Shown here in pieces: positions 5,587 through 58,984 of a DNA stretch of 64,000 bases. The position numbers and the translations under genes are program-made. Below the pieces are notes generated by a model, which was given only the letters and a program-made list of their open reading frames with translations, ran no database searches and was not told where the DNA came from. The first letter of the stretch is position 1; every line of letters starts with the position of its first letter. Origin of the DNA: Patescibacteria group bacterium (GTDB taxonomy: Bacteria; Patescibacteriota; UBA1384; 2-12-FULL-50-11); assembly GCA_022843855.1 (NCBI GenBank), contig JALHMV010000003.1, positions 6,560 through 70,559 of the forward strand, read 5' to 3'.

Positions 5587-5595
5587 AGAAACAAA

Positions 5596-6553: not shown

Positions 6554-6630
6554 CGCGAGAATGGAGCAAGGGTGGCTCGTCGGCCTCATAAGCCGGAAAT
6601 CAGGCGGTTCAACTCTGCCTCTCGCAACCA
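6554..6630 (+). tRNA. tRNA-Met (anticodon CAU), initiator-like (C1xA72 mismatch, 3' end GCAACCA with encoded CCA)
   Basis: Cloverleaf by eye: acceptor CGCGAGA/TCTCGCA, D-stem GAGC/GCTC, anticodon loop CUCAUAA, T-arm GGCGG-TTCAACT-CTGCC. Strong resemblance to the E. coli tRNA-fMet layout. Atypical 3-nt 8/9 linker and 6-nt variable loop. Coordinates +/-2. Confidence 0.55.
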
Positions 6631-39300: not shown

Positions 39301-42300
39301 CGAGGTCAATCAGGGCTTAGCGTCCGGTGTCGTCTTCCTCGGGGCAGGTTTTGCTCTCAAGAAGTTCAAGTACGCGATCCCTGCACTCGGCGCCGGAATG
39401 GAGATCGGCAACACGTTCGAGGAAATGGTCAAAGCGGGCATTCCCGTCGAACAGGCCAAGAATTGGGCGGTCCTCGTCGGTGCCGGCTCCGGCTACATGG
39501 AGAAGTTCGGATTGGGCGGCACGGCAAACCGTATGCTGGCCCGGCTCGGCACCGAGCTCTCCGATGAATCGGTCAAGACGCTTTCCCGGTCGATGGTCGA
39601 GTTCGCCAAAGCGGCCGGCCGCGGAGCTGCACAGGGCATCGCTCGCGAAATGCCCGAGGAAGCGATCCAAGAGTGGGCTCAGTCTTCGTTCGTGGATGCT
39701 GCGGTCAAGGCCATTGCCGCTCAAAACCCGAGCGAAGGCCGCCTGATCCTCAATTTTCTCGACGAGCTGCCAAAGGCGATCGCCGAGAACTTCCATTCTG
39801 CCGTGATCGGCGGCGCGACGGGCGGCATCCTCGGCGGCGGAACGCAGACGGTCGGCTCTGTGATCGGCGAGGGCATCCGTCAAAGCCGGATGCCGGGCGA
39901 ACAGCCGGAAGCGGAAGCAGAGATCCCGGAAGGCGAGCTCCGCACGCCACAGGCGGCCGAGGATGCGGGCGAATCCGCCATTCTCGAAAAGTTCGGCGAC
40001 CGGACCGGCCAGGCGACGGTCCGCGGGCTTGATATGGGCGGGCGAGATACGGCCGCATTGGACGATATTGCCAACGAGGTCGCTCCGGGAACCGTTCAGA
40101 CGCCTCAACAGGCGGCCACAGAGCCCGCTGGAGGCGTTCAAACGCCTGAAGGCACCCAAACACCCCCGGCAACGCCTCCAACGCAGCCAGCGGGGCAGGC
40201 AAAACCAAAAACAAGGCTTCCTCGCAACGTCATAGGCAAGGAAGTCGAGATCGAAGGCAAAGGCACCGGCCGCATCGTCGCAATTCGGCAGGGCAAGTTC
40301 GTCGTCGATTACGATTACCGCGGCAGACCGGGCGAAGAGTTCTACCATCGGCAGGACTTCTTCACGCCGGAGCAGCTCGCGATCGGCGGCACCAGCCTGA
40401 CCGAGTACAAGCCGCCGAAAGCTCCGAAGCAGACGACATCGGCACGGCAGCCGACGCAATTCGGTGCCGAGGACTTCGGGGGAGAGATCATCGAACGCGT
40501 TCCGCAGCCGGGGCAGGCCGGACAGCCGGCACAGCCTGCCGGACAGCCGACGACCGCCGAGGTCGTGCGGAAGATCCGCACCGGGCGGGCAGCTTCCGGA
40601 AAGGGTGCCGCGATCCAGAAATTCACGCCGACCGAGGACATGCCGATCGATACGGTCTATACCTCGACCAACGACAAGTACGATGTGGTCCCGGTCGTGA
40701 TCAGCCGCGACGACATCATCGGTTCGTGGGAGGAAGGTTATCCGGAGCTGCTTCAGCCGCGTGACCGTGACTCCATCGCCTCGGACGCTCAGGCCGATGA
40801 GATAGCACGCAACCTGATCCCGGCGAAGCTCGGCGACAACGTCAACGCCGGCGACGGCAGAATGCTCGTCGTTCCGGTCGAGGTCGACGGAAAGATCAAG
40901 TACGCATTGATCACCGGCAACGGCCGGACGCTGGCGCTCGACCTCGCCCGCGAACGCTACCCGGAGCGTTTCGAGGAGTACCAGGGATTCGCGAAATCAA
41001 AGGACCCGAGCGTTCAGGGCGACAACCTGATGTATGTCGGGATCCTCGACAACACAAAGCTCGAAGACGGCGACCTGCGGCAGATCGCAGTAGATGCCAA
41101 CAAATCGACAGTTGCGGCGATGAGCCCGGTCGAGCAGGCCAAGGTCGATTCGGAAACACTCGACTCCTCGCTGATGCAGAAGTTCGTCGTCAACGACGCA
41201 GGCGACATCGACACCGCAGGGAACCGCGAATTCATTGCGGACACTCGTCAGGACGACGACCAGGACGAGGCTCTTTCCGATGGAGAGCGGAAGCACATCG
41301 ACAAGCTGATCGAACAGGGCTTTACTGCAACGACCGGCAGGATGACGCCGAACGGGCAACAGTGGTTCCTCCTCGACACGAAAACGGGATCGCAAGAGCA
41401 GATCAGCCGAGCCGGCCGCGACTACGCTTATGAAAAACTCGGAACGCCGGACAAGCAGGGTTTGCGATCCGGGCCGATGTTCGACGAGCCGATCGAAATG
41501 CGTGGCGATACGCCGTCCGACGACGACCTCGGCAAGATGTTCGACGATCTGGTGCCGGAGGAAGATTCTGCCCCGTCGCTGTTTGACGCGGAAGTGAAGG
41601 CGGCGGACGCAGATAAGGCACGCATTGCCCGTCTGCCGGATGATGAGTTTCGCAAGGAGCTCGATAAGATCAGCCCCGAGGCCCTCGACAAACACGCCGA
41701 TCGATCGAACGGCGGACGCGACATTTCGTTTACGACCGCCGACTCGCCGGCGACCGAACTTTCCGGCCGAGGCAGGATCATCGGTGAGGCGATATCGAAC
41801 AATGAGAGTGTGTTCAAGGTTCGCCATTACGATCAATCGAAGGGCGAATGGCTTACCGCCTATGTTGCCGAAGCGGATGTTGACGAATGGCTGCCGGACG
41901 GCACGCTGAACGAATTCCTTGCCGCAAACCCGGACTCGGCGATCACGAAGGTGGGATTGCAGAACGGCCCGCTGCCCGAGCCAGAGCGGACGCCGGAAAC
42001 AGTCAAAAAGGCACTCGCACAAACCAAGCGGCAGATCAAAAAACTTGAGAACGCCGACGAGGTTGACGAGAACGCTCTGGCCGCAGCAGAGCAGCAGCTT
42101 GACAGCCTAGAAGCCGAGCTTGCAGCAATGGCGACGACAACCGCTCCTAAGCCCGAAGACCTCAAGGCCAAATATCCTGTTGGCCGCAAGCTGCTTCATC
42201 GCACGGGCGGTAAGCCATGGAAAGTTACGGGCCATCAATCGGATTTCGGTAAGTCAGGCCAGATTGGCATCAGGCTCGAACGCGGAACGGACAGGACGAT

Positions 42301-45300: not shown

Positions 45301-48300
45301 GAGCCGCGACGAGGTCGCAAAGTCTGACATCGCCATTGCGGCGGTCGGTGGGGCGATCAAGCATCTTGCTGACCGTGCTGCCGAACTCGGCCTGACCGAT
45401 AACACGCACACCATCTATCAAGTCTCAAACGAAAACGTCTGGGAATACGAGATCGAGGCCAACCGCAGTGCCGAATCTCGCGGCACGACGAAAAAGCAAA
45501 GGGCTGCGGCAAAGCAGACCTCAATCCCGAGAGGCTCAGTACCGATCACAAAGTATCGCGTCTATGACGCGAACGGCGTCGAGCAGGTGGGCAATATCGT
45601 TGATCCGGCGATCGCTCAAAGGCAGTTAGAGCACTATCCGGGCGGTCGCATTGAAGCCTACGACGGATACATCCTGAAAGAGTTTGCCGACAAGCTCACA
45701 TCTGCCAAAGAGTCGACCGGCAAAGGCATCGACGAGGCCATCAAGGGGCTCGGGAAGCTGTTCGATCCGAAGAAGTTCAAATCCTCGACCGTGCCGGCGT
45801 TCGACGATGAGACGTATCAGGCCGCTAAGCCACACTTCCTAGAGGCTTACAACCACTTCAAGGATGCCGCTCAAAACATCGGCGACGCGATGCGTCTGCT
45901 GATCGACCAGATGCGGGCCGAGGGCTACGATAACGAGACGCTGCGGCTGATGAAGCCGTATATCGTGCAGTTCGTCGCCGACATCCGCGACGGAGTGATC
46001 GGGCAGGACCTGACCACACCCGAGGACATCATTGATTCGGTTCCCGAGCCGGAATCGAAGGACGCAGCGGAACGCCTCGAACAGCAGAAGGCTGCCGAAG
46101 GTAAATCGGTCAAGATCGGCGACCTGGCCAACATTCAGGCGACCGTTCCGGTGCTCTTCAAGGAGCAGCACGAGGACGTTCGTTTCGTCGAAGATGCCCT
46201 ATTCGTCCGCGATGGCAACGGCGTGATGCTGACCAACGGCACCGGCACCGGCAAGACCTTCTCCGGGCTCGGAGTGGTCAAGCGAATGGCGATGCAGGGC
46301 AAGGACAATATCTTCATTGTCGTGCCGTCGCAGGAGATCGCGAACGCGTGGATCTCGGCCGCCACGAACTTTGGGCTGCAGGTCCGGCAGCTCGCGGACA
46401 CGCAAGACAACGGCGCTGAGGGCATCGTTATCACGACCTACGCGAACATGCAGCAGAACCCGTCGCTGATCAAGCGTCAATGGGACCTGATCGTGGCAGA
46501 CGAGGCTCATACGCTTTCGTCGAACAAGGACGGTAAGCCGACCGGGGCGTCGAAGGCGTTGCGGGCGATGACACTGCACAAACGCGGGAAAATGGACTAT
46601 TGGCGGCAGGCGACCATCAAGGAGGTCACCGAACGCGAACAGGCCGAAGCCCGGATCGAGGTCGTACGGGCTCTTCTCGAGCGCTACGAGGACGAAGGCC
46701 CGCAAATGGCCGATCGCGCGAAGGAGGCCCGCGAGGAGCTGCGTTCACTCGAAGATGCGGTCGCTACGCTGAACAAGCAGATCGAGAAGATCGGAAATGC
46801 CGCCGTAGCCGAGTGGGACCGGCGAATTGCCGACGAACCAAAGGGCAAGGCGTTGATGCTTTCGGCGACGCCGTTCGCTTATCGGAAATCGGTCGATTAC
46901 GCGGAAGGCTATTTGTTCGACTACGACGATGGAAAGGTCCCGGACGACCAGCTCGGACGGACGCGCCACTACAACGAGCCGAACAACCAAGAAGCGTTCA
47001 TGATCGAGCACTTCGGCTACCGGATGCGGTACAACAAGCTGACCGAACCCGGGCCGGAGGTAGATACGGACATCATGGAGCGGCAGTTCAACACGTGGCT
47101 GAAACAGCAGCGTGTCCTGAGCGGCCGTATGCTCGGCATCGACCAGGACTATTCCCGCGAGTTCCTGCTGATCAAAGAGGGCATTGGCCAGAAGATCGAC
47201 GACGGCCTGAAGTGGCTGCAGGAAGCCGAGGGCGGAAGGTTCCGGCCGCTTGCCGAGATCGTCAATAAGAGCTTCAGTTACCACAACCGGATGTTCCTGC
47301 TCGAAGCCATCAAGGCCAAGGCGGCGGTGCCGATCATTGACGCCCACGTCGAAGCCGGCCGCAAGGTCGTCGTCTTCCACAAGTTCAACGTCGGCGGCGG
47401 TTTCCATCCGTTCAAGCCGAAGGTGCCGAACGAAAAGACGCTGATCAGCGTCGGCGGCAAGACCATCGAGGTCAATCTGAAAGATCTCTACGCCGAATTC
47501 ACGCGAAAACGGCCGGACCTGATCGCTCTGCCATTCGAAGGGCTGGAATCGCCGATCGAGACTTTCGCCGAATCGTTCAAGGGTGGAGCCACGAGCCTGC
47601 AACACGTGCAGCTCAACGGTACGCAGTCGAAAAAAGCGAACCGCGAGTCGATGGCGATCTTCAACACGGATAACTCCGAGATCGATATCATCCTCGTCCA
47701 GGCCGACAAGGGGCAGGCGGGGATCAGCCTTCACGACACGACCGGCAAGCATCAGCGGGTAATGATCGACCTCGGGCTGCCGTCGCGTCCGGTCGAGGCC
47801 ATCCAGAAGGAAGGCCGCATCTACCGTCTCGGCACCAAGACCAACGCTCCGATGTTCTATTTCACGACCGGAACGCTATGGGAGGCGACCGCGTTCGCAC
47901 AGACCATGGCAGAACGCTCCTCGACCGCCGAGAACCTCTCGCTCGGCGAAGAGGCCCGAGCTCTCCGGCAGTCGATAATCGATTCGTTCCTCGAACCGCG
48001 GACCGATCCGATGCCGACCGAGCTGGACGGCGTCGGGGGCAAGGAGCGTGACCGGGCGGGGCAGCAGGCCATATCCGAATATGAGCGGGCGAAGACGTTC
48101 TTCTTCGGCCAGCAGAAGAAGACCTCAAAGACCAAATCGGCCGAGGGCGAGGACTACTATCCGACACCTGAACCGCTCGGCTTGAAGATGGTCGAGTTTG
48201 CCGATATCGCTGCTGGCCACAGCGTCCTCGAACCGAGTGCCGGCCACGGGGCGATCGCCCGCTTCCTGCCGCAGACCTCACGGAACACCGTGATCGAACC

Positions 48301-51300
48301 TTCGCAGGAGCTGATGACCAGGCTACGGCTGCATATACCGCCGTCCGACACCAACCGCTTCGAGCAGGACGTCTTCGAATCGCTCGACGTTCGCGCGAAC
48401 AAGTTCGACGTCGTCCTGATGAATCCGCCGTACGGAAAGGGCGGCAAGACCGCGATGGAGCACCTCGCGAAAGCGTTCGAGCATTTGCGAACCAATGGCC
48501 GCGTCGTGGCGATACTGCCGGAAGGCCCGGCCGCCGACAAGCGGCTTGAGCAGCTGATGGCGGGGCAGACGGAAAAGGCCCGCAAGCTGATAGTGCGATC
48601 GGATCCGAACACTTTTGCGCCGCTCTCGCTTTACGAGGGCGACACCGTCCAAGTCACCGACAAAGGGACTATCTACGGCGTCACCAGAGCTGAGACCGTC
48701 CGCCGCGGTTTTGAGTTCATCGCAACACTCCACGGCACCGACGCCCAGGGCAGCCCAATGACAATGGAGCTGAGAGGCTCCGACCGGTTCGACAAGGTCA
48801 TTGCAGGTCCGAGGATAGTGCCGGCAAGCACTCGCGTCGTCAAGACCGCCGAGATCTCGCTGCCGACGAAGACCTTCGAACGTGCCGGCACCGGCGTCAA
48901 AACGCGGATGGTCGTGCTCGACAAACTTGCCGGGAAGGAACTTGAACTCCACGAACCGTGGGGGCTGCTCGATCTTTCTGACGTCCGCACGTTCGACGAG
49001 CTGTTCGACGAGTTCGAGGAGCTGACGATCCCGCCACGTCCGTATGGCGGCGAGGCTGCCCGCAGGGCCGAGCAGGAAGCGATCGAACGTGAAGCAAAGT
49101 TCGAGGCCGAGCGGGAAGCCAGGGCACAGCAAAACGCATCGGGGCGGGCCGCAGCGATTCCGCACGGCCAGCACGCGTTCGATCTTCGTGAATTTCAGCA
49201 TACGACGCAGGGTCACATGATCTACGTCGCCAAGCCGACCGGTCCGAAAATGAACAAGGACGAGTTCAAGCGGATCTCGGCCATCGCCCGCACGCACGGC
49301 GGCTATTATTCGAGCTTCAAGAAGGACGGAGCGATCCCCGGCTTCCATTTCCGCAGCCCGGAAGCTCGGGACGCGTTCAATGCCGAAGCAGAAGGTGATT
49401 CGACGATGCTCTCCATCGCCGAACCGGCAGCCGCTCCTGCGTTTTACTCGGCCGCGGAACGAGCGATCGAAACGAAGATGCCGAATCGTGCTCCGGCCGA
49501 TCAGGTGCGGAAGATCCTCGAAGGTCCGGGCATCAAGCGCGAGGAAGTGGAATGGCTCGGCGTCGATGAGTGGCTTGAAGGCAAGCGGACCGTGACGAAG
49601 GACGAGATGCTCGAATTCATGCGAGACGCCCGTATCCAGATCGAGGAAAAGGTGCTTCGCAAGCGTGAACGCGACGAACGCTCGCCGGCCGACCGCAACT
49701 CGACCGACGTCGACGAGCGCCACGAGGCGGCTCGGGAGGAGCTCGCCGAGATGTTCGACCTCGACACGTGGGACATAATACCGGCAACCGTGGAAGCAAC
49801 TCGGCAGCAACTCATAAACGACCTTCTCAACCGCGCCGACCAAGACGACGATCTTGACGAAGCCTTAACAAGCGTGATCGGGGCCAGCAGTGAAGAGTAT
49901 TGGGGCATTGAGGAAGACGACTACGAAGAGTTGGAAGAAGCATGGGACAACCTGCGAATGGCGTCTCGCGAAGCCCGCGGAGCTGACGGTGCGATGGACG
50001 AACAGGACCCGGCTACCGGAGCTCTTCAGTACGACAACCCGGATTGGCGACTCTCAGGACCTCACAGTAACTACCGCGAATTCGTCTTCACCCTGCCGCA
50101 GCAGTATTCGATGTTGCGGATGAAGTATCGCGATGAGCTCGCCGCGAAATACGGAAGCGGAGAAGCGGTGTGGCAAAATTGGACGGAGGCGGAACAGGCC
50201 GAGTTTGACAGGCTTACGGACATCGACCTCGGCAACGACGCGAACAGCCCTGCGTTCACCACCGGCCACTTCGGCGGAATGCCAAACATCCTGTTTTGGG
50301 TGCGGGCGACCGAACGCATCGACGCCGATGGGAAGCGTGTATTCGTGATCGAGGAGATTCAGAGCGATTGGCACCAACGCGGAAGGAAACAGGGCTACAA
50401 CACAAAAATGCCCGAGCCCGTCTTTGAGTGGACCACCACGGAAGGTGTTGCGTCGGGGGAATGGAAAGCTGCGATTTCGTCACCTCACGGCGACATTATT
50501 GGCTACGGCCCAACAAAAGAACGAGCGGCGGAAGCTGCTAAGCAATCGTGGCGTGGCAAGTTTTCCGCAATTCCCGATGCTCCTTTCAAGAAGTCCTGGC
50601 ACGAGCTGGCGTTCAAGAAGATGCTCCGCAGAGCGGTCGAAGAAGGCTACGATCGCGTTGCCTGGACGACCGGTAAGCAGCAGAACAAACGGTGGAGCCT
50701 GTCGAAGGTGGTCGATGAGATCGAGTCGGGCATTGACCATTTCGATTCCAACCATCCGACAAGGCCGGACCAGGAGTATCTCCACATCACCCTGCGGCGA
50801 GACGGCGGCGACCTGTATCTAAAGGTGGACCCCGAGAACGGTGTTGTGATCTCAGCTCCGGACGCTTTGCTAAAGACCGAGGGAGAACACTTGTCAGAAG
50901 TTCTTCCAAAGGCGATCGCCGATAAGATCCTCAGCGAACAGTACGTCCTTATCGAGGACATCGCCGAGGTCGAAATCGGCGGCGAGGGTATGCGCGGCTT
51001 CTACGACAAGATGGTCCCGGGCTTTGTGAGCAAGTACGTGAAGAAGTGGGGGGCGAAGGTTGGCCGGACAGAAATACCTACTATCAACGACGAGCGCAGC
51101 ACGCTCGGTGGGCAGCGCGACCGGAACGAGCTGCGAAAGGTAGCTGATGATTTTCTTACCCGCAACGCCATTGGTATTCGCGAATTGAACGATTTTGTTT
51201 CCACCGGTAGAGATATTTCGGAAGCGGATGCCAGGGCGATGAGTGTTGACGAGCTGACCGCATATCTGCTCGGCACGAAGTATGAGTCGCTTCACTCCGT

Positions 51301-54300
51301 CGACATCACGCCGGCGATGAAGCAATCGGTCATGGACGAAGGGCAGCCGATGTTCTCGATCTACGAACCGGCACGAAAAGAGGTCCGGTTCTACTCCGGG
51401 CTCGAGCGGGCGGTCGAAGGGCTCAAGCAAGAGAAGTTCTCGGTCGATCAGGTAATGAACGTGATCAATAAGCTGCCCGGCATCCGCGCGGAGGAGCTTG
51501 ATCACACCCTGCTGGATGTGTTCGTCCAGCTGCAAGCGGACCTCGGGGCAAGATCCATCACGAAGGACGAGCTGCTCAAGAAGATCCGGGCCAGCAAGAT
51601 CGTCGTCGAACCGCTCGCGCTCGGCTGGGACGGCGATCAGGACTCGGCCAAGTTCCGCGGCTATGCCGAACCGTTCCCGGCTTCGCGTGAGGACTACAAG
51701 GAAATGTTCCTCACCGCTCCGTTCGCAGAGGGCGGCTGGATCGACGGGCATCCCGAGTATGCCGACGTCAAGAACCCGGTCGTCCGCATCCGGATGGACA
51801 AGGTCACGCTCGACGATGGCCGTCGCGCGCTGATGGTCCACGAGGTTCAGGGGCCGGACGAGGACAACATGGCGAAGATGCCCGCGGTCCTGCAGAAGTA
51901 CCACAAGCAGATGGGGCTCAAGTACGCGATGCAGTACGCGATCGACCAAGGGCTTGATGCCGTCGCCTGGACGACCGGCGAACAGCAGCTTGCCCGCTAC
52001 CCGATCGAGAAAACGGTCGACCGGATAGAGTTCAGCAAGAACCTTTCCGGGCAGTCGCTTATCCGCGTAACGGCAAAGGGCGACCGCGATCCGATCAGGA
52101 TCACCGCGGGGCCGCACGGCACCATCATCAATTCGTCGGAGGACAAGTTCGTTGACCGGAAGCTGACCGAGGTGTTTCCGAAGGCTCTCGCCAATCAGAT
52201 ACTCGAACAGACAAGCGGCACCATCGAGGGCGACGGGCTAAAGATCGGCGGCGATTCGCTCCGCAACCTGTACGACAAGGTCATTCCGGCCCACATGAAG
52301 AAGATCTATGGGCGGTATGCGGCAAAGGTCGAAAACGGCGAGATCTCTTACGATCCCTATCTCAAGCTGACCGACTTCCGCGTCGAGGAGCTGGAGCTGG
52401 AGCTGGTCAACCCCGCTCCGCACCTGCATCGCTTCAAGGTCACGGCGACCGATTCGGCGACCGGCCTGCCGGCTTACCGCGGCACCTTCCTGACGCGGGA
52501 GGCGGCGGAACAGTACATCAAGGAAGCCAAAGAGGTATTCCGGCGTAAGACGCATCCGGTCTGGACGATGGGCATTACCGATCCGCTCCGCGAAGCTCTC
52601 GCGACCGATGAGCAGCCGATGTATTCGATCGAGGAAGAAAATCGCAAACAGGCGATCAAGATCCTCAAGACGCTCGATATCGAGGACGTCGTGCCGATGG
52701 TGGAAGCCACTCGCAGCGGTGACCGCGTGAAGCTCAATCTGCCGGCAATGGAACTGCTTCGCCGGGCTTTCGAGCAGGTCGATATCGAGGCAGGGAAGCG
52801 AAAGGTCGGCGACGAAAGCACGTATCCGGCGTTTCTCGGGCTGTTCACCGATGCCGCGAAACTGATCAAGGTCGAACAGGCGTTAATGGCCGCCGCCGTC
52901 AACGCGGCCGAAACGGGGCATCCGGCCGCGGACGCTATGCTGAGCGGCCTTGCCAACGACATCGCTGACGCACGCAAAGCCGGACAGCAGACCGCGGTGT
53001 TCTACGTGTACGATGCCAAGCTGCCGCAGGAGATCTTCCACCAGGCGGTCTATCTCGGTTCGGTCGAGAAGCACCTGACCAAACGCCATGCACGCCCGGC
53101 CGAGCTCGACAAGATGCCGCAGGTCCGGAAAGCGTGGGACAGCTTCTTCTCGCAGCAACCCGAGTACAGCCCCGAGCGGCTTCGCCAAACCGCCAACATG
53201 AGCAAGGCGAACGCTGAGGCTCTGAGCAAAGCTCTCGTTCGCGAGGAGGTCGCTGCGTGGGTCGCCGAGGGAAGCTGGGAAGAGCTCGGCCTGACCAAGG
53301 ACGAGGGGCAGGAATACTTGTTCGAGTTTCTTGAGTCGTTCGCCGACAAGGTCTATGCTGACACGAAGAAAGAGGGCAAGTCCGATGAGGACGCTGAGCG
53401 TGCCGTTGAGGCGGCACTCCGTCGATTTGAGGAGATTGAACATGTCCAAGAAGCAACCCAAAGAGTTCTCGCCGCAGCCCGAAAAGAGGTCGATGCTGGC
53501 ACAGACGGCCGACCTGATGGCCGAGATACGCAAGGAAATGCCAAAGGCAAGCCGAGCGGAGCGTCTGGCGGAGTTCAAGAAGCGCCACGACCTGATGCTG
53601 AGCAAGGAGCAAAGCCCTACGACCTCGAAGGATTCGAGCCCAAAACCCAAAGCAAAGTAGCCGGCGACGCGTCCGAGATCCCGGAAACCAAGCAGTTCCC
53701 CGGCGTCCGCTCCAAAACCGAACTTGCCAGCCTGCCCGGCACCGAGCGTGCGGCCGGCATCGCTGCCGACGATGTGATCTACACGGTGTTCAGCGACCGG
53801 GCAGCTCAGGCCGCGGCAAAGCGGATGCTCACCGAGAACAGCACCGAGGAAGTGCTGAAGATCCTCAAGAACACGGAAAGCCCCGACGTTCATCACGCGA
53901 TCGCCGCGTTCTCCATCCAGCAGTCGCTCCGTGAAGAAGCAACCCGCATCGAGGCGACGAAACCGGACGAGGCTGCCAAGCTTCGCCGCGTGTCAATCGA
54001 CCTCGGCGTCCATCTGGCAATGAAGATGGTCCGTGCCGGCCGCTTCATCCGGGCGGCAGGCGTGATCCTCAAGACAACGGACGGACTGATCGCCGTCGCC
54101 CAAAAGACGTACCAGGACCGCCACGGCGTCGGGAACGATCTGCCGGCCGACATCATTCGCCGGATCGAGGAAAAGGCCGGGAAGGCAGAAGTTGACCTCG
54201 CTGAGCATGAGGCTTTCCGTCGTCAAATGGAATCGCTGCAGCGACAGCTCGACGCGCTCAAGCAAGAGCTTGCCGGGTCCGAGGACGCCATCCGGACCTC

Positions 54301-57241
54301 GCGAAAAGTTACCGGCCGTCGCAAGAAGTTCGTAACCGAGATCCGCGAATCGCAGAAGGAATCGGTCGCTGCCGCCTTACAGCGAATGCAAAGCCGGGCA
54401 TTGATCCGGGCGGCATTCCCGCAGCACGTTTCGCCGATGTCGGCAAGCGAACAGCAGGTGCTCGACGATGTGACGATGATGTCGGTCTTTGACGAGGCGA
54501 AACTGCCCGACGAGATCCTGAAGGACATGGGTATCCTCGGCGCCGACATTCTGCTCGAAGGCCTCGCCCTGCCATCCGACAAGATGATCCGGCCGTTGAC
54601 GTTCGACGAGCAAATGATCGCCATGTACGGCGAGGACATCCGTCCGCATCTTGAAGACGTTCACCGCGAATCGCTTCGTCAGCGGGATGTGTGGATCAAG
54701 GAAAACCAGCGAAAGAAAGAGATCAAGGCCATCATTGACGAGCTCGGCGACCACCTGACCGAGGACGATATCGAGGCGATCATTCAGGCCCGTGCCGACG
54801 AACTCGAGCGCCGGGTGCTGATCACCAAGCTTCACCGTGTCCGGGCAGAGCGTGGGCAGAAGACCGAGGCCGTGACGACGATCGAGGGAGTCATTGCCCG
54901 CATCGCCAAGCCCGGCCAGGAAGCCGCCGTTGCGGCTGCGGTAGAGCTGATCCATCGCAAGCCGTCCGCGCAGGAATTCTACCGGCTGCTCGAAGCGATC
55001 GGGATCAAGAACAAGGATGCCCGCGAGGCTCTCCGCGAGGGCAAAGAGCTGCTCGATCAGGCCCGGCTTGTATTCAAACGCGAGGAGGAGGAGCGGAAGG
55101 ACGAGCTGCGGGACCGGATCAAGCAGGGCGACGAGGAGCTGCACCAGCTTGAGAAAGAGGTTGCGGCAAGCCGTGTCCGTGCCCGTGAATCGCAGGCCGA
55201 GATCGAGAAGGAGCTCAAGCGGATCGGTTCGGGCGAATTCATGTACCGCGTCTCGCAGGCACGAGAAGCGATAAACACGCCTCGGGCGATAATGGCATCG
55301 GCGGACCTTTCGTTCTTGCTTCGGCAGGGCGGTTGGTTCATGTTCGCCCGGCCGGAGGATCAGGGGCCGGCCTTCCTCGCGTTACTCAATGCGACAACGG
55401 AGCGGTTCAACCGGCTGGGCTACGAACGGACGATGGATGCGATGGAGGACAATCCATACTTCGAGCTGTCCGTTCAGGCGGGTATGGACTATGCCGGACT
55501 CGGCAAGCACGGCGAATTCTCGATCACGAAAGGCGAGGAAGAATTCCGCTCAAATATGCTCCGGCACATGGCGAATTGGAGCAAAGGGAAAAGCTTCCAC
55601 AAGTTCAATATCGCCCGCCTGCCGAACGCGATCATTCAGAAGTCGGACGAGCTGTACACCGCCTTCCTCGACGCTCAACGGCTTTCGACGTTCGCCCAGA
55701 CCGCCGAGTTGTGGGCTTCCCGCGGGATCACCTTCGAAACTCATCCAAAGGAGTACCGTGCGTTGGCGTCCTACATCAACGACGCGACCGGGCGGGCCGC
55801 GATACCGGAGCTGCTCGGCGGATCCAGAGCTGCCAGCCTGCTGATGAACCTGCCGCTGTTCGCTCCGCGGTTCACGCTCAGCCGGTTCAAGCTGCTCTGG
55901 AAATCGACGCTCGGCATGGCTTTCCTCCCACCGGAAACCCGGAGGATCGTCTTCCGCGATGCGCTCCGCTTCTACGGCACGACCGGGGCGTTGATGTCGC
56001 TGGCATGGCTCGGCGGGGCGACGATCGGTTTCGATTGGGACGATGCGGACTTCCTCAAGCTTAGATGGGGTCCGGAGGACAAAGACACGACGGACATGTT
56101 GATCGGTATGCAGCAATCGCTTCGCGTGACGATGCGGATCATCCAGGCATCGCTTCGCCGATTCGTCGGGCCCGAGTGGTCGAACGGGCTGATCCGCGAC
56201 AGCCTCTACCACGTCGACGACAATGGCCGCGTCCTGGTCAACGAGTTCCGGGCGGAAATGGGGCTCAACGTCGAAACGAGCATTTGGATGAACTTCCTTC
56301 GCACCAAGCTCGGGCCACCGGCCTCGCTCATGGTCGATTGGGTGCAGGATTCCAACGTGATCGGAGAAAAATTCCGATGGGACAAGGCGATCGTGTCCAG
56401 AGTAACGCCTCTCGGCCTCCAAGAGACGGTCGAGGCGGGCTACGACGGCGGCGTTGCGACCGCTCTGGCCGCGTTTGCTCACACAATGCTCGGCGTCGGG
56501 TACGGACACTATCAAAAGTCGCTCACAGGGCAGCGAACGGAAGCACAGAAGCTTGCTGCGAAGATCAATGGACTACGTTTCAGCTCAACGGTCGAAACCG
56601 AAGAGGCGAAAGCGGCCCGCGACGTCCTGAACGGGCTCCGCGATGCTGCCCGGCAGGGCGAGGATATCTCCGAGCAAGTGAAGGCAATGTACGAAGCCGG
56701 CGACCTGACCAAGCAAGAGGCTGAACGGCTTCTTCTTGGTGGTGAGGTCAACCCGCTCTTCCTGCAGATCCGCAATATGCCGGTCGGGCTCATCAAGGAG
56801 GTTCGCAAGATCGCGACGCCATCGGAAACGGAGATGATCGATACTCTGCTGGACTCCAAGCAGGCCCGCAAACAAAAGACCGATCGGCGACAATCGGCTG
56901 CCGAGGAGCTGTTCGGTAAAACGCCACTTATGCGCGGTGGCGTAACCGACGCCCCGACCAAGCCGCTCGCGGAGCGGATGAAGCGGGCAAGCGTCCGGGA
57001 CGCATTGATTCTGTATCAGGAGTACCAGGCACAGCTTTCCGACGAGCAAAAGGCGACGCTCCGCTCCGAACTACGCCGAAAACTCACGACGAGCAGCCGT
57101 CGCGGGACGCTGAGCGACGAAAATCGCGAAGCCGCGGAGAAGATCTTCGGCGGGGAATTGAACCTGCCTCGCCCTCGCCCACGACGGCGGAGCCCAAGCC
57201 GTTCACGGCAGCCGCTCCGCGGACTTGAAGGGGTATATTGA
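36386..57241 (+). CDS. giant multi-domain 'polyvalent'-type protein (6,951 aa): SLT-like, ParB-like, SF2 helicase, N6-adenine-type MTase, duplicated modules, C-terminal hydrophobic region
   Basis: Single stop-free frame of 20,856 nt. Motifs HES...GFSQVMPSTA (SLT), LQPR...GNGRTLAL (ParB-like), GTGKT/DEAH/SAT/QKEGRIYRLG (helicase), YYPTP/LEPSAGHG/NPPY (MTase). Confidence 0.8.
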   Translation: MERETDFSALDAFADDPESQQTQDFSALDAFADTPKAAKPKPRAQRPKRTASAPANKEAERRQRVLDRLRGLKLDMEDDVFDDFDMVTKHESGRRHFDDAGRVIRGVPTKSGERAIGFSQVMPSTAKKWQKHGLNPDDEIDNIAIGALEFRSGSDDPIGRRLAYVGGPKSRALKYYKKHGEVPDWKMYSYLPNNKETFRHYVDRTGGFKDLRRLDEVAGGITRDPVSGAPQVDFKVGGPTAPIAHRPEDIAAFDAKFRKGKPPRQPALQPGVEGAEDPNVDQFGKPFKYEWQKTGDVGNGLKYAGEIDGRYFAKNEDGDTYELDEKTKQFKPTAPTKRAYDAEGNEYQLDANQDNVPEGHVRRLRDGKPFVFSPDGTIREEGVPELPPWVAGKTPPKSELPPDPMLRKAYQTRLEQGFTDSEELRQKFIEGWAAVQAGKQQRIFTDEEIKQIEALELYAANNAQQGIVPQVQETPTRARRAPRSTTAGPSTEGIGTFYADVDPATAPLGSDPRQHVFEQAVRQLGNELYGRPLDKVEVQAAIEFQKRRGGDFVYLTEGGKATNVPTEPTKGRYQITAERAAEIRDFLKFNQPLLERTRDDAIAKFIASTFEIDDAKIAEFAEMGINADRLRAALESDPKFADARKKRLENEQFIKDYVAKQTTGANATADSAANQTGRVLEMLRSKDPAENRLGQQALENLSRRSPNIAYVEALANLGIVPRDVLDKAKEAEQSELINAIASLNDPSWYKRLLNDVQDGGTGFYEFVVGPFKRADRIKAAREQARPGKDGKPSNAGILLPMVYSAWEGPPELRGVNSPEAQKRRREAIGDSLRSMQAEFGSIGEFHKFMEANAGEEANIGRQLKFFGSNVLKNIASFGKSAAVIDSAAEDLEVLGIKVPKDYMPTVRNAMNVVVALRNVMASGSGVMRPSDILTRDIEGAQDDPRNARLWQYARWLEEFAGDDRYLQHTFSGEVNQGLASGVVFLGAGFALKKFKYAIPALGAGMEIGNTFEEMVKAGIPVEQAKNWAVLVGAGSGYMEKFGLGGTANRMLARLGTELSDESVKTLSRSMVEFAKAAGRGAAQGIAREMPEEAIQEWAQSSFVDAAVKAIAAQNPSEGRLILNFLDELPKAIAENFHSAVIGGATGGILGGGTQTVGSVIGEGIRQSRMPGEQPEAEAEIPEGELRTPQAAEDAGESAILEKFGDRTGQATVRGLDMGGRDTAALDDIANEVAPGTVQTPQQAATEPAGGVQTPEGTQTPPATPPTQPAGQAKPKTRLPRNVIGKEVEIEGKGTGRIVAIRQGKFVVDYDYRGRPGEEFYHRQDFFTPEQLAIGGTSLTEYKPPKAPKQTTSARQPTQFGAEDFGGEIIERVPQPGQAGQPAQPAGQPTTAEVVRKIRTGRAASGKGAAIQKFTPTEDMPIDTVYTSTNDKYDVVPVVISRDDIIGSWEEGYPELLQPRDRDSIASDAQADEIARNLIPAKLGDNVNAGDGRMLVVPVEVDGKIKYALITGNGRTLALDLARERYPERFEEYQGFAKSKDPSVQGDNLMYVGILDNTKLEDGDLRQIAVDANKSTVAAMSPVEQAKVDSETLDSSLMQKFVVNDAGDIDTAGNREFIADTRQDDDQDEALSDGERKHIDKLIEQGFTATTGRMTPNGQQWFLLDTKTGSQEQISRAGRDYAYEKLGTPDKQGLRSGPMFDEPIEMRGDTPSDDDLGKMFDDLVPEEDSAPSLFDAEVKAADADKARIARLPDDEFRKELDKISPEALDKHADRSNGGRDISFTTADSPATELSGRGRIIGEAISNNESVFKVRHYDQSKGEWLTAYVAEADVDEWLPDGTLNEFLAANPDSAITKVGLQNGPLPEPERTPETVKKALAQTKRQIKKLENADEVDENALAAAEQQLDSLEAELAAMATTTAPKPEDLKAKYPVGRKLLHRTGGKPWKVTGHQSDFGKSGQIGIRLERGTDRTIMSVADLEKKFKTEKPTESNRRTAEDLFSDTAATIGDLFDTLQTFEIDPDATAGQLEEIEKIKPQVNAIKGQSKAAKAQREPLRARIRELQAEITSYMDSQETAWVQFTEDVLQQLVKAAQQYKLLEQPTDENIHSLYDVIERLTDPRFFDGINMDVLLEDHVDDLLGEAFDTIQRIKRTFVTAPQTSDTTRALTADPENRSLTDTPEKRAAMSRAYLAAYAEDSEETWGGPMDWAAVDQLMTMPREEYGLVGVIERFMTDPAVAPILAELERSAGVSDAEIEILKDFGGIYGLDPDIIEDIIGEILEIARDRGETDGGAADTLPEPDGSGAPDSDQGSETSIFKEEPEGEVGNPDTSGLFAEQEKQEDEELSKEAEAERQAERERHRDFRNSVAAQVPALDDVLAFENPFYNAGKFPKKKGQGYASNEEALAAERAELERLTNRYNANLADLKNPEATEELDQYLWNSAPVNMKLVLTHIGWAKANINELEKALGNTPPFKAGKQKFDWYFPSKEEVRETDQADNAATPEAQPPSLEALRGAEQTDLFGLEADNTGLFAQDGPTAIEPKQAEDNSKAAIKESLLSKAETEARRQVIETFGEEIGELLYDTRNDKATPKASSAAQGIISRWSGEDTDSEAVQQLIADAATAIEWIREAELRGANLDEFVRQAAIGREGLTIAQRKIYDLIASNKFGRQADELLRNAKTASEVAANVAEIEGGLEDGKVTLQQLIDVYGYTHKWEQNKKLEPAFRGAYVIGRNDDFVYVEEVYAGEGDLPPMVDVVIEHVGEFSEFEAPGEYVVTEDDFYYYFGFDVRIPEGAKVYDDYFERDLEPDSEDGTDDVEVREDDVPTERTGDADSLRESDAKPPGQRIEPGSEQSLFGDSSALEGTPGDSNVREEAAERPDAVDRDAGRGDGVSQEGISDDQQAASDAGGEAVPRTEVDLGALFDELVPPAGEAPTTNLFGEQSRTEPVYLGNQKKVRKAIEAGHGFLAVAPSGLSRDEVAKSDIAIAAVGGAIKHLADRAAELGLTDNTHTIYQVSNENVWEYEIEANRSAESRGTTKKQRAAAKQTSIPRGSVPITKYRVYDANGVEQVGNIVDPAIAQRQLEHYPGGRIEAYDGYILKEFADKLTSAKESTGKGIDEAIKGLGKLFDPKKFKSSTVPAFDDETYQAAKPHFLEAYNHFKDAAQNIGDAMRLLIDQMRAEGYDNETLRLMKPYIVQFVADIRDGVIGQDLTTPEDIIDSVPEPESKDAAERLEQQKAAEGKSVKIGDLANIQATVPVLFKEQHEDVRFVEDALFVRDGNGVMLTNGTGTGKTFSGLGVVKRMAMQGKDNIFIVVPSQEIANAWISAATNFGLQVRQLADTQDNGAEGIVITTYANMQQNPSLIKRQWDLIVADEAHTLSSNKDGKPTGASKALRAMTLHKRGKMDYWRQATIKEVTEREQAEARIEVVRALLERYEDEGPQMADRAKEAREELRSLEDAVATLNKQIEKIGNAAVAEWDRRIADEPKGKALMLSATPFAYRKSVDYAEGYLFDYDDGKVPDDQLGRTRHYNEPNNQEAFMIEHFGYRMRYNKLTEPGPEVDTDIMERQFNTWLKQQRVLSGRMLGIDQDYSREFLLIKEGIGQKIDDGLKWLQEAEGGRFRPLAEIVNKSFSYHNRMFLLEAIKAKAAVPIIDAHVEAGRKVVVFHKFNVGGGFHPFKPKVPNEKTLISVGGKTIEVNLKDLYAEFTRKRPDLIALPFEGLESPIETFAESFKGGATSLQHVQLNGTQSKKANRESMAIFNTDNSEIDIILVQADKGQAGISLHDTTGKHQRVMIDLGLPSRPVEAIQKEGRIYRLGTKTNAPMFYFTTGTLWEATAFAQTMAERSSTAENLSLGEEARALRQSIIDSFLEPRTDPMPTELDGVGGKERDRAGQQAISEYERAKTFFFGQQKKTSKTKSAEGEDYYPTPEPLGLKMVEFADIAAGHSVLEPSAGHGAIARFLPQTSRNTVIEPSQELMTRLRLHIPPSDTNRFEQDVFESLDVRANKFDVVLMNPPYGKGGKTAMEHLAKAFEHLRTNGRVVAILPEGPAADKRLEQLMAGQTEKARKLIVRSDPNTFAPLSLYEGDTVQVTDKGTIYGVTRAETVRRGFEFIATLHGTDAQGSPMTMELRGSDRFDKVIAGPRIVPASTRVVKTAEISLPTKTFERAGTGVKTRMVVLDKLAGKELELHEPWGLLDLSDVRTFDELFDEFEELTIPPRPYGGEAARRAEQEAIEREAKFEAEREARAQQNASGRAAAIPHGQHAFDLREFQHTTQGHMIYVAKPTGPKMNKDEFKRISAIARTHGGYYSSFKKDGAIPGFHFRSPEARDAFNAEAEGDSTMLSIAEPAAAPAFYSAAERAIETKMPNRAPADQVRKILEGPGIKREEVEWLGVDEWLEGKRTVTKDEMLEFMRDARIQIEEKVLRKRERDERSPADRNSTDVDERHEAAREELAEMFDLDTWDIIPATVEATRQQLINDLLNRADQDDDLDEALTSVIGASSEEYWGIEEDDYEELEEAWDNLRMASREARGADGAMDEQDPATGALQYDNPDWRLSGPHSNYREFVFTLPQQYSMLRMKYRDELAAKYGSGEAVWQNWTEAEQAEFDRLTDIDLGNDANSPAFTTGHFGGMPNILFWVRATERIDADGKRVFVIEEIQSDWHQRGRKQGYNTKMPEPVFEWTTTEGVASGEWKAAISSPHGDIIGYGPTKERAAEAAKQSWRGKFSAIPDAPFKKSWHELAFKKMLRRAVEEGYDRVAWTTGKQQNKRWSLSKVVDEIESGIDHFDSNHPTRPDQEYLHITLRRDGGDLYLKVDPENGVVISAPDALLKTEGEHLSEVLPKAIADKILSEQYVLIEDIAEVEIGGEGMRGFYDKMVPGFVSKYVKKWGAKVGRTEIPTINDERSTLGGQRDRNELRKVADDFLTRNAIGIRELNDFVSTGRDISEADARAMSVDELTAYLLGTKYESLHSVDITPAMKQSVMDEGQPMFSIYEPARKEVRFYSGLERAVEGLKQEKFSVDQVMNVINKLPGIRAEELDHTLLDVFVQLQADLGARSITKDELLKKIRASKIVVEPLALGWDGDQDSAKFRGYAEPFPASREDYKEMFLTAPFAEGGWIDGHPEYADVKNPVVRIRMDKVTLDDGRRALMVHEVQGPDEDNMAKMPAVLQKYHKQMGLKYAMQYAIDQGLDAVAWTTGEQQLARYPIEKTVDRIEFSKNLSGQSLIRVTAKGDRDPIRITAGPHGTIINSSEDKFVDRKLTEVFPKALANQILEQTSGTIEGDGLKIGGDSLRNLYDKVIPAHMKKIYGRYAAKVENGEISYDPYLKLTDFRVEELELELVNPAPHLHRFKVTATDSATGLPAYRGTFLTREAAEQYIKEAKEVFRRKTHPVWTMGITDPLREALATDEQPMYSIEEENRKQAIKILKTLDIEDVVPMVEATRSGDRVKLNLPAMELLRRAFEQVDIEAGKRKVGDESTYPAFLGLFTDAAKLIKVEQALMAAAVNAAETGHPAADAMLSGLANDIADARKAGQQTAVFYVYDAKLPQEIFHQAVYLGSVEKHLTKRHARPAELDKMPQVRKAWDSFFSQQPEYSPERLRQTANMSKANAEALSKALVREEVAAWVAEGSWEELGLTKDEGQEYLFEFLESFADKVYADTKKEGKSDEDAERAVEAALRRFEEIEHVQEATQRVLAAARKEVDAGTDGRPDGRDTQGNAKGKPSGASGGVQEAPRPDAEQGAKPYDLEGFEPKTQSKVAGDASEIPETKQFPGVRSKTELASLPGTERAAGIAADDVIYTVFSDRAAQAAAKRMLTENSTEEVLKILKNTESPDVHHAIAAFSIQQSLREEATRIEATKPDEAAKLRRVSIDLGVHLAMKMVRAGRFIRAAGVILKTTDGLIAVAQKTYQDRHGVGNDLPADIIRRIEEKAGKAEVDLAEHEAFRRQMESLQRQLDALKQELAGSEDAIRTSRKVTGRRKKFVTEIRESQKESVAAALQRMQSRALIRAAFPQHVSPMSASEQQVLDDVTMMSVFDEAKLPDEILKDMGILGADILLEGLALPSDKMIRPLTFDEQMIAMYGEDIRPHLEDVHRESLRQRDVWIKENQRKKEIKAIIDELGDHLTEDDIEAIIQARADELERRVLITKLHRVRAERGQKTEAVTTIEGVIARIAKPGQEAAVAAAVELIHRKPSAQEFYRLLEAIGIKNKDAREALREGKELLDQARLVFKREEEERKDELRDRIKQGDEELHQLEKEVAASRVRARESQAEIEKELKRIGSGEFMYRVSQAREAINTPRAIMASADLSFLLRQGGWFMFARPEDQGPAFLALLNATTERFNRLGYERTMDAMEDNPYFELSVQAGMDYAGLGKHGEFSITKGEEEFRSNMLRHMANWSKGKSFHKFNIARLPNAIIQKSDELYTAFLDAQRLSTFAQTAELWASRGITFETHPKEYRALASYINDATGRAAIPELLGGSRAASLLMNLPLFAPRFTLSRFKLLWKSTLGMAFLPPETRRIVFRDALRFYGTTGALMSLAWLGGATIGFDWDDADFLKLRWGPEDKDTTDMLIGMQQSLRVTMRIIQASLRRFVGPEWSNGLIRDSLYHVDDNGRVLVNEFRAEMGLNVETSIWMNFLRTKLGPPASLMVDWVQDSNVIGEKFRWDKAIVSRVTPLGLQETVEAGYDGGVATALAAFAHTMLGVGYGHYQKSLTGQRTEAQKLAAKINGLRFSSTVETEEAKAARDVLNGLRDAARQGEDISEQVKAMYEAGDLTKQEAERLLLGGEVNPLFLQIRNMPVGLIKEVRKIATPSETEMIDTLLDSKQARKQKTDRRQSAAEELFGKTPLMRGGVTDAPTKPLAERMKRASVRDALILYQEYQAQLSDEQKATLRSELRRKLTTSSRRGTLSDENREAAEKIFGGELNLPRPRPRRRSPSRSRQPLRGLEGVY

Positions 57242-57366: not shown

Positions 57367-57693
57367 ATGCCAAACTCACGCACCGCAACCATTACGGCCG
57401 GATTTTCCGCCTCAGAATATAAACCACTTTTAACACTTCTCGGTTCATCGCTTGCCTCAAAGACACGCCGCTACCGCGACGTCAAGCTTGAGAACAAAGG
57501 CGACACTGACCTTTACATCGCCTCAATGCAGGCCGGATCAAGTCCGGCGACGCCGACCGCGGGCGACCGCAAGACGATCGAGGCAGGCGATGCCGAATTC
57601 CTCGGCGAGATCGAGACCGACCAGCTCTTTGTCCTGACCGCGAACGAAAGCGGCAACAACCAACTCGAGTTCGTCGGCGAACCGCAGAACTGA
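57367..57693 (+). CDS. hypothetical protein (first gene of lysis block)
   Basis: ATG in the GGAGTCACAGATG context. Confidence 0.4.
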   Translation: MPNSRTATITAGFSASEYKPLLTLLGSSLASKTRRYRDVKLENKGDTDLYIASMQAGSSPATPTAGDRKTIEAGDAEFLGEIETDQLFVLTANESGNNQLEFVGEPQN

Positions 57694-58460
57694 TGATCAA
57701 GAAACACGACAATCAGGCGAACATCCTTGCGTGGCAGGGCTTTCTGAACACGCAGGGCGAGGCATTGCGTGCCGATGGCCGATGGGGGCCGCTGACCAAG
57801 GCGGCGACCGGCCGCTTTCAGATGAAGCACTCGCTGACGCCAGACGGCATTGTCGGCGAGGACACGCTTTCGGTTGCGATGCAGAATGGGTTTGAGGGGT
57901 TTGCGGCGCCGATCAAGCCGATAAGCCGGAAGGCCCTGATCTGTATCTCTGCCGGCCATACCAACACGGCAGGCCGCGACCAGGGCGTTGCCGCCAACGG
58001 GCTCATCGAAGGCCGCGAAGCGGTCAAGATCCGTGACCGCGTGGCCGACCTCGTCCGACAGAAAGGCTTTGCAGTGATCGAGGACGGAGCGGACGGCGTC
58101 AATGATCCGCTCTCAAAAGCGCTAGACCTCGTGCCGCTTGCCAAGTTCGCGATCGAATTCCATTTCAACGCGGGTCCGCCGACCGCCACCGGGATCGAAG
58201 TACTTTCGCTTCCGAACAACAGGCCTCGCTCGCAGGATATCGCTGGAGCTCTGGCGTCGTCGCTCGGGCTCAGGCTTCGCGGAGCGAATGGCTGGAAGTC
58301 CGACACCGAAGGGCAGCACTCGCGTCTCGCGTTCTGCCGGGCGGGCGGGCTGGTCGTCGAAACATGCTTTCTCACCAACACCGGGGATGTGGCCGCCTAT
58401 CAGGCGAACTTCGAGAAGATGTGCGTCGCCCTCGCCGACGCCATCGAACGATGTGTGTAA
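57693..58460 (+). CDS. endolysin: peptidoglycan-binding domain + N-acetylmuramoyl-L-alanine amidase
   Basis: N-terminal PG_binding_1-like WQGFLN...DGRWGPLT...DGIVGEDT. Amidase_3-like ICISAGHTNTAGRDQGV...E... Confidence 0.65.
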   Translation: MIKKHDNQANILAWQGFLNTQGEALRADGRWGPLTKAATGRFQMKHSLTPDGIVGEDTLSVAMQNGFEGFAAPIKPISRKALICISAGHTNTAGRDQGVAANGLIEGREAVKIRDRVADLVRQKGFAVIEDGADGVNDPLSKALDLVPLAKFAIEFHFNAGPPTATGIEVLSLPNNRPRSQDIAGALASSLGLRLRGANGWKSDTEGQHSRLAFCRAGGLVVETCFLTNTGDVAAYQANFEKMCVALADAIERCV

Positions 58461-58465
58461 CTACT

Positions 58466-58984
58466 ATGCAAACAAAAGAGATCGCAAAAATATGTCACGA
58501 GGCGAATCGGGCTTACTGCCAGATACTCGGTGACTCGTCACAGCTTCCGTGGGGCGACGCTCCGCAATGGCAGCGGGATTCGGCCATCAAGGGCGTCGAG
58601 TTCTGTCTTATGAACCCCGAAGCTCCGCCTTCAGCCAACCACGAATCGTGGCTCAAGCAGAAAGAGGAAGAGGGATGGAAGTATGGTCCGGTGAAAGACG
58701 CCGAAACGAAAGAACACCCATGCTTCGTGCCCTACGATGAGCTGCCGGCCGAACAGAAGGCAAAGGATTATTTGTTCAAGGCGGTCGTCGCCGGCCTCGC
58801 TCCGTTCGTAACCGAGTCCTACGGCGAACCGCAGGACGAGGAGCCGAAAGCCGAGGATGGAATTGCCGCGTCGACCATTGAGAACGGCACGCCCCTGACC
58901 GACGTCTTCCCCGAAGGGATCCTCGTCGGCGGTGTCGATGAAGCATTGCTCGACGGCGAAGGCAGCGAGGCGGCGGCAGCGTAA
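58466..58984 (+). CDS. RyR (ryanodine-receptor-like) domain protein
   Basis: ...ESWLKQKEEEGWKYGPVKDAETKEHPCFVPYDELPAEQKAKDY matches the RyR domain pattern. Confidence 0.5.
   Translation: MQTKEIAKICHEANRAYCQILGDSSQLPWGDAPQWQRDSAIKGVEFCLMNPEAPPSANHESWLKQKEEEGWKYGPVKDAETKEHPCFVPYDELPAEQKAKDYLFKAVVAGLAPFVTESYGEPQDEEPKAEDGIAASTIENGTPLTDVFPEGILVGGVDEALLDGEGSEAAAA

Follow-up and report, generated by a model that had tools for sequence, protein, structure and literature searches.

Phage P1 DarB (YP_006479, 2255 amino acids (aa), PHROG 1685) is a virion protein whose protection of DNA against EcoB and EcoK was shown experimentally, and it carries a methyltransferase (residues ~90-290) followed by a helicase (~833-1660). 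The methylase-helicase dyad of polyvalent proteins was described in 2017 together with a proposed mechanism; in these proteins the order LPD36-methyltransferase-helicase is nearly universal, and Strawberry-notch-like ATPases appear in few instances (Iyer et al., PMC5512222). The giant protein of Serratia phage Parlo was likewise published as a DarB homolog with helicase and methyltransferase domains (PMC6606913), and an analogous giant protein of the Bcep22-like phage JC1 was recovered from purified virions with 51 unique peptides (PMC9144972). Here, we analysed 64,000 nucleotides (nt) from a Patescibacteria group bacterium (GenBank assembly GCA_022843855.1, contig JALHMV010000003.1, forward-strand positions 6,560 to 70,559), referred to as the window. 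A first-pass annotation made from the letters alone had proposed a DarB-like helicase and N6-adenine methyltransferase inside a giant protein, at window positions 46150-48560. We found that both enzymes are encoded there as one conserved unit and that the methyltransferase is homologous to that of DarB. The helicase, however, belongs to a different SNF2-like family, and the order of the two domains is reversed.

The unit lies within an uninterrupted open reading frame (ORF) of 6951 codons, located by ORF calling and translation at 36386-57241 on the forward strand, as are all features of the protein given below. It contains no internal stop and is read as a polyvalent virion-type protein of 6951 aa (G+C content at third codon positions (GC3), 0.74); an identical product has also been called in public assemblies. 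In the frame of the giant ORF, the G+C contents of the segment at the three codon positions are 0.62/0.40/0.80 (GC3 0.80), like those of neighbouring genes. Beneath the segment, antisense ORFs of 168-506 aa show the mirror image of this codon-position G+C pattern; we rejected them as genes and regard them as shadows. At 6951 aa, the protein is the longest among the 150 best family representatives, the next being 6327, 5968 and 5875 aa.

All of the motifs listed in the first-pass annotation are present within this ORF, in a single frame and in canonical order. Translation placed helicase motif I (GTGKT) at aa 3287 (nt 46244-46258; earlier estimate ~46245), motif II (DEAH) at aa 3372 (46499-46510; ~46500), motif III (SAT) at aa 3493 (46862-46870; ~46870) and motif VI (QKEGRIYRLG) at aa 3807 (47804-47833; ~47805). 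The methyltransferase motifs follow: motif X (YYPTP) at aa 3924 (48155-48169), motif I (LEPSAGHGA) at aa 3948 (48227-48253), motif IV (NPPY) at aa 4013 (48422-48433; ~48421) and motif VIII (LPTKTFERAGT) at aa 4159-4169 (48860-48892). In the whole protein, GTGKT, DEAH and NPPY are each found a single time. An alignment of 69 sequences at 38-49% identity showed the core residues of every motif to be invariant, among them the Q, E, R, R and G of motif VI. Among the 120 best homologs (35-53% identity), 104-120 contain Walker A, DExH, SAT, the arginines of motif VI, motif I and NPP[YF]; motif IV reads NPPF in 107 and NPPY in 9. That the catalytic motifs are kept at only ~40% overall identity points to selection on catalysis. 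A single profile, PHROG 10691, covers the entire helicase-methyltransferase unit in one stretch with 1100 bits.

We obtained two AlphaFold models, one built from the 69 sequences over aa 3213-4105 (mean predicted local distance difference test (pLDDT) 82.8, predicted template modelling score (pTM) 0.78) and a second over aa 3880-4240, with pLDDT values of 82-83 for the two. A concern raised earlier was that GTGKT and NPPY might fall in disordered regions; they lie instead in well-predicted parts of the models, and the motif-bearing 10-residue blocks of the first model have mean pLDDT values of 72-92. The proposed bounds held less well. The conserved unit starts at or before nt 46022, and the methyltransferase runs on for another ~430 nt to ~48985 (~aa 4200), because strands beta6-beta7 and motif VIII follow an insertion of ~90 aa.

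The helicase assignment was borne out by Pfam matches to ResIII and SNF2-rel_dom and by a SNF2-like fold. ResIII passes its cutoff (E 9.6e-12, 45.6 bits), SNF2-rel_dom exceeds its cutoff of 24.9 with 30.7 bits, and DEAD sits at its cutoff of 26 with 26.0 bits. Helicase_C (22.4 versus 23.5 bits) and Helicase_C_4, the Strawberry-notch C-terminal family (27.3 versus 30.5 bits), fall just below theirs, and NCBIfam gave nothing near its cutoffs. The first model predicts two RecA-like lobes, with the ATPase spanning ~aa 3246-3845. Lobe 1 (46121-46915) carries motifs I, II and III and, between motifs II and III, a helical hairpin insert of ~85 aa (46577-46831; model helices H186-224 and H227-270). 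Lobe 2 (47063-47920) carries motif VI and the two subthreshold C-terminal matches, with a multihelical insert after its first strand (helices 387-444). Two helical inserts of this kind are typical features of SWI2/SNF2 ATPases (Iyer et al., PMC5512222). Foldseek comparison of the helicase with the Protein Data Bank (PDB) returned Chd1, CSB, RapA, Sth1, Snf2 and Rad54 as best matches (E 1e-11 to 7e-13). In a viral structure library, phage proteins with the helicase-methyltransferase unit ranked first, followed by many SNF2-type helicases. On its motifs I, II, III and VI, its two predicted lobes and both modelled inserts, the ATPase is SWI2/SNF2-like and belongs to superfamily 2 (SF2). A precomputed Helicase_C_4 match in about a third of homologs suggests a possible affinity with Strawberry-notch (SBNO). 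Ahead of lobe 1, a conserved lead-in (aa ~3101-3245, 45686-46120) has a tblastn match in ~24 of 85 related loci and matches residues 187-306 of the product of a stand-alone gene (L008_helMT).

Between the two enzymes is a helical linker (47921-48145) that the first model folds into four helices around a G-x-G-G-K motif (GVGGK, aa 3882-3886, nt 48029-48043). Across the 69-sequence alignment, G670 of this motif never varies, and G672, G673 and K674 rarely do. The linker resembles published LPD36, with its four helices and GxG[GAS], although the GEGG of DarB lies much closer to YYTP than GVGGK does here.

The methyltransferase (aa ~3921-4200, 48146-48985) is predicted to be of the gamma-class N6-adenine type. 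Its assignment as an amino-methyltransferase is supported by the Pfam family MTS, which passes its cutoff, and by a family profile that ranks type I M subunits and M.TaqI first. The first-pass call of a gamma-like enzyme also fits the full order of motifs, X-I-IV-VIII. This order, a D-Y-x-x-T-P helix cap and NPP[YF] are the signature of EcoKI/TaqI-like gamma-class methyltransferases in polyvalent proteins (Iyer et al., PMC5512222), and the helix cap is conserved in the family alignment. The second model shows a full seven-strand class I fold, with the methyltransferase core above pLDDT 90. Searching PDB sequences with profile A3, made from the methyltransferase region alone, gave the StySJI M subunit (4e-4), M.TaqI (7e-4) and the EcoKI M subunit (6e-3), with MJ0882, METTL5 and RsmC lower, so that the classification carries modest E-values. 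A single-sequence phmmer search of the same database gave only marginal matches, and the family profile was needed. HsdM subunits were the best matches by profile and among low root-mean-square-deviation (r.m.s.d.) structural matches. Taken together, the methyltransferase is read as an EcoKI/TaqI/DarB-type N6-adenine DNA methyltransferase.

Beyond strand 5, the family consensus reads LPxxTFERAGTxVxxKII, and the corresponding LPTKTFERAGT follows the insertion of ~90 aa (aa 4060-4149, 48563-48832) between helix E and strand 6. This insertion is predicted to be beta-rich (pLDDT 46-72). It is missing in Parlo, ZX1 and stand-alone homologs and is matched in 37 of 85 related loci; one aligned homolog has a similar 'Y-x-GDT' insert. 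Pfam detected no target-recognition domain in the giant protein, and stand-alone members end ~50 aa past motif VIII. Neither a nuclease domain nor a specificity subunit was detected within or beside the unit. A conserved C-terminal extension of the module (aa ~4230-4340, 49073-49405) matches PHROG 11358 (E 1.4e-35) and has a tblastn match in ~40 of 85 related loci.

With both enzymes delineated, we compared the unit with DarB itself. Both place a gamma-class adenine methyltransferase and a SNF2-related SF2 ATPase in one polypeptide. Profile A3 aligned by hhalign with DarB residues 90-278, pairing with its YYTP, LEPSAGTG, NVPF and LPTGTF (probability 96.1%, E 2.9e-9), and profile A1 aligned at 94.6%. 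The copies in Parlo and in two further loci (L008 and L005) match the DarB methyltransferase directly by blastp (E 6e-7 to 2e-5, Parlo at 6e-7). By blastp with the giant protein, neither P1 DarB (nothing at 1e-3) nor DarA was matched; of the P1 set, only DdrB was. The motors differ: our helicase profile aligned with the DarB and Bcep22 helicases over just 62 columns around Walker A, with a probability of 57.6%. Moreover, the order of domains is opposite, motif IV is NPPY here and NVPF in DarB, and the two proteins fall in different PHROGs. Strictly speaking, the module falls outside the DarB family. Because the methyltransferase is homologous, the motor different and the order reversed, the label 'DarB-like' covers two architectures. 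DarB protection rests on experiment, whereas the helicase-first family is known from sequence.

The closest named relatives are the 'DarB-like antirestriction' or 'PLxRFG' giants of Parlo (QBQ72230, 3764 aa), Klebsiella phage vB_KpnP_ZX1 (QZE12048, 3867 aa) and Pseudomonas phage Skulduggery, assigned to PHROGs 10691 and 5143. Units of the Parlo/ZX1 type have the same helicase-then-methyltransferase order and share 44-46% identity over ~850 aa in one stretch. They lie mid-protein, and their giant gene is the last of the virion block, directly ahead of the lysis cassette. Blastp found no similarity beyond the unit, and the protein described here is almost twice as long. It also differs in its DdrB-ParB domain, its methyltransferase insertion and its lack of the PLxRFG motif, which is present in the ZX1 and Parlo proteins and absent from the 6951 aa. 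The Lessievirus proteins Bcep22 gp75 and JC1 gp69 (4515-4602 aa), also at the end of the virion module, instead carry a methyltransferase-helicase pair. Bcep22 gp75 holds a DarB-type dyad in DarB order and matches DarB in three blocks, and blastp found no similarity between it and the giant protein.

The helicase-first arrangement is widespread. Both domains were found in 112 of the 120 best homologs, and in all 112 the helicase comes first. An exhaustive search of 1.84 billion cluster representatives yielded at least 815 clusters (50% identity) at E <= 1e-30, and the top 150 representatives are mostly proteins of 2,000-6,300 aa. In IMG/VR, 353 contigs hold a relative; in the best 80 of these, the unit sits in an ORF of 2.5-6.0 k aa in every case, on contigs mostly of 40-65 kb. 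Its usual place is thus about halfway along a giant protein of a ~60-kb phage, shortly ahead of the lysis genes. By tblastn, aa ~3200-4100 are common to 84 of 85 related loci, with 4151-4350 and 3101-3200 found in fewer and the ParB region (1400-1650) in 12. Metagenomic phage L008 has the region split into genes for InPase, helicase-methyltransferase and LPD38, and the holin and amidase genes come next. An Acinetobacter prophage (L005; GCA_031197435.1, JAVILI010000028.1, 6462-13831) carries a dar-type row of DarA_N, a DdrB homolog and helicase-methyltransferase. There, the DarA homolog has E 2e-12, the DdrB homolog is 41% identical to that of P1 (E 2e-101), and directly after them comes P0047, a helicase-methyltransferase protein of 1276 aa whose cluster contains 750 member sequences. 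Stand-alone copies of ~850 aa are also found beside RteC, TraG and TraM in conjugative transposons of Bacteroidota; being near transfer genes, they fit a role at DNA entry.

The giant protein has one further recognizable domain, a DdrB-type ParB domain at aa 1429-1617 (40670-41236; Pfam ddrB-ParB, E 2.3e-10, above cutoff). It is 28% identical to P1 DdrB (blastp, E 1e-11) and is also matched by 12 related giant ORFs and by the Acinetobacter DdrB homolog. About 85% of the 6951 aa have no Pfam match at E <= 0.5, only the ddrB-ParB, helicase and methyltransferase domains being detected, and self-blastp at 1e-5 found no internal repeats. The protein thereby unites three hubs of the polyvalent-protein network, namely SNF2 ATPase, N6A methylase and DdrB-ParB, and departs from the described dyad in placing the helicase first (PMC5512222). 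Tail-type genes lie upstream of the giant gene and an amidase endolysin gene downstream. By the sequence of its three domains and its position between these genes, the giant protein is a polyvalent protein of a phage late operon. An SF2 translocase coupled with a gamma-class-like N6A methyltransferase is also known from type I and type III restriction-modification enzymes (HsdM/HsdR, Mod/Res), but the setting here is a phage structural operon.

We think that the module probably forms the catalytic core of a polyvalent phage protein, in which a SNF2 motor, read as a dsDNA-dependent ATPase and translocase, and a methyltransferase would protect incoming DNA. By analogy with P1 biology and JC1 virion proteomics, the giant protein would be packaged in the virion and enter the cell with the genome. 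The ATPase may then track along the incoming duplex while the methyltransferase tethered to it, lacking a recognition domain, would modify adenines with little regard to sequence. The motor might additionally, or instead, block or displace translocating type I restriction complexes. Either way, DNA would be protected in cis until phage genes are expressed. This proposal is essentially the dyad model of Iyer et al. (PMC5512222). It would make the module a functional counterpart of P1 DarB that pairs a homologous methyltransferase with another SNF2-like motor, in the opposite order. The DarB-like function put forward in the first-pass annotation agrees with the methyltransferase homology, the DarA and DdrB neighbours in the Acinetobacter prophage and published DarB-like annotations. 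The unit adds a further example of a common DarB-like module that is thought to keep phage DNA safe from restriction as it enters the cell. We also considered a bolder and rather unlikely version, in which the helicase-first unit is an independent, permuted solution to the problem that DarB solves, with the motor carrying the methyltransferase along and N6-methyladenine (m6A) being deposited processively with little or no specificity. If that were true, the DNA would resist many adenine-sensitive restriction systems at once, and this lineage would have added the insertion of ~90 aa and the DdrB-type ParB domain to a Dar system contained in one polypeptide.

Several observations weigh against a DarB-like protective role. 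The virion evidence comes from Bcep22 and JC1 proteins, which have the other, DarB-type dyad and no blastp similarity to the giant protein. In addition, a 760-kDa protein would have to pass through a tail or be processed first. At the level of the enzyme, the best and only passing Pfam methyltransferase model is MTS, a family of rRNA and protein methyltransferases (26.3 bits versus a cutoff of 23), and both N6_Mtase (12.7 versus 20.4 bits) and Eco57I (17 versus 25.3 bits) fall below cutoff. Foldseek searches with the methyltransferase model were dominated by generic small-molecule methyltransferases at high r.m.s.d.; they do not discriminate among class I enzymes and were not used to classify it. 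The NPPY motif is also found in HemK-type and N2-methylguanosine (m2G) methyltransferases.

An enzyme acting on RNA or protein (HemK-, RsmC- or METTL5-like) rather than on DNA would account for the MTS match, for weak NCBIfam matches that are HemK-related and for the missing target-recognition domain, NPPY being common to these enzymes. We nonetheless give this a very slim chance: the family profile places DNA N6A enzymes above MJ0882, METTL5 and RsmC, the D-Y-x-x-T-P helix cap is that typical of EcoKI/TaqI-family enzymes, and the domain is homologous to the DarB methyltransferase and always fused to a dsDNA-type SNF2 motor. It is also highly improbable that decay has left one or both domains with nothing but a structural function in this very large virion protein. 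The stretches without detectable domains, ~85% of the protein, and the NVPF variant of P1 DarB would suit such decay, but the catalytic motifs either do not vary or are retained by 104-120 of the 120 best homologs.

Two other scenarios keep the enzymes active and change when or why they act. The unit could work late in the producer cell, as an orphan methyltransferase whose helper motor assists it in modifying replicated DNA before or during packaging. Many phages protect their DNA by methylation before packaging, and the gene sits in the late or structural block, where its product would be made when progeny DNA is present. Such late action seems improbable to us given that the unit is consistently found inside giant multidomain proteins at the end of virion modules, that it is accompanied by homologs of DarA and DdrB, two proteins that P1 carries inside its capsid and ejects together with its DNA, and that action at entry is the natural reading of the conjugative-transposon copies near transfer genes. 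Alternatively, the motor might serve mainly in genome entry or early handling, pulling DNA in or stripping host nucleoid proteins, while the methyltransferase would label phage DNA as self for the sake of a phage-encoded function and not for antirestriction. SNF2 ATPases act as translocases and remodelers on dsDNA, Chd1, CSB, RapA and Snf2 come closest in structure, and the ATPase motifs are strictly conserved. Some podophages, moreover, depend on enzyme-driven genome internalization. The link to DarA, DdrB and a DarB-type methyltransferase points instead to restriction avoidance, and conjugative transposons that carry the ~850-aa stand-alone gene transfer DNA through a type IV secretion system, which brings a motor of its own; we therefore hold an entry role, too, to be a low-probability explanation. 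Protection of incoming DNA remains the reading that we prefer.

We also surveyed the surroundings of the giant gene. Just upstream are a gene for a small class I methyltransferase (32865-33410; Methyltransf_11/23), one for a 250-aa protein with a weak match to phosphoadenosine phosphosulfate (PAPS) reductase (34075-34827) and one for a 519-aa protein (34824-36383). Bcep22-like phages have a PAPS reductase gene at the position equivalent to 34075-34827, and the upstream synteny with this group is loose: a PAPS-reductase-like gene, a protein of ~510-530 aa and the giant gene. Downstream, the endolysin gene (57693-58460) encodes PG_binding_1 and Amidase_3 domains and is overlapped by an ORF at 58364-58984 containing a RyR domain (E 1.9e-11); a Phage_holin_10 gene was called further downstream in an identical public contig (L011). 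No RNA family and no tRNA was found inside the helicase-methyltransferase segment, the sole tRNA of the window being tRNA-Met (CAT) at 6554-6630, between the replication genes and a ParB-like gene (6677-8524). Within the giant protein, aa 4562-4998 (~50069-51379) and 5165-6154 (~51878-54847) are common to a few giant ORFs (L024, L059, L066, L072, L089 and L092), and both match overlapping stretches of the same target ORFs. There is a weak match of aa 4646-4775 to PHROG 7348, labelled 'endolysin'. Overall, the giant protein is most closely related to a 6028-aa ORF of L024 (IMGVR_UViG_3300043480_000021, 69,421 bp), which additionally matches the N terminus (aa 55-465) and aa 2505-2666.

The phage backbone appears, from sequence comparison, to lack a close cultured relative. 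Megablast of the giant gene against INPHARED phage records found no match, and tblastn at 1e-5 against 50,697 phage records found none for the 519-aa protein or for the putative large terminase (11189-13456), itself identified by a weak match to PHROG 38. Looking up the exact protein encoded at window 1392-1955 returned no record. The sequence originates from an activated-carbon metagenome (PRJNA301005, LNFM01), and a public contig from an activated carbon metagenome (L093; ENA SRR2905840) overlaps the left end of the window. This contig carries, on the opposite strand, a Peptidase_S24 (LexA/CI-type) gene that lies ~10 kb upstream of the gene for the replication initiator (window 4183-5184) and suggests a temperate-type early region. 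Proteins of this contig are also recorded on a 759-kb record of whole-genome shotgun project LNFM01.

The general theme (2017, PMC5512222) and DarB-like relatives (PMC6606913) were already known. This instance stands out by its record length, by having a DdrB-ParB domain in one chain with the module, by the methyltransferase insertion and by a phage backbone without a close relative in the reference phage collection. On its own, the instance adds little new knowledge, but it documents that two architectures are found under 'DarB-like' annotations. The helicase-methyltransferase pairing is among the commonest cores of giant proteins thought to be sent into cells with phage or conjugative DNA. 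Together with the Acinetobacter dar-type operon, the present instance supports a stand-alone homolog of ~850 aa as a choice for studying translocase-coupled methylation, and the Acinetobacter row itself looks tractable for functional work on the helicase-first family.

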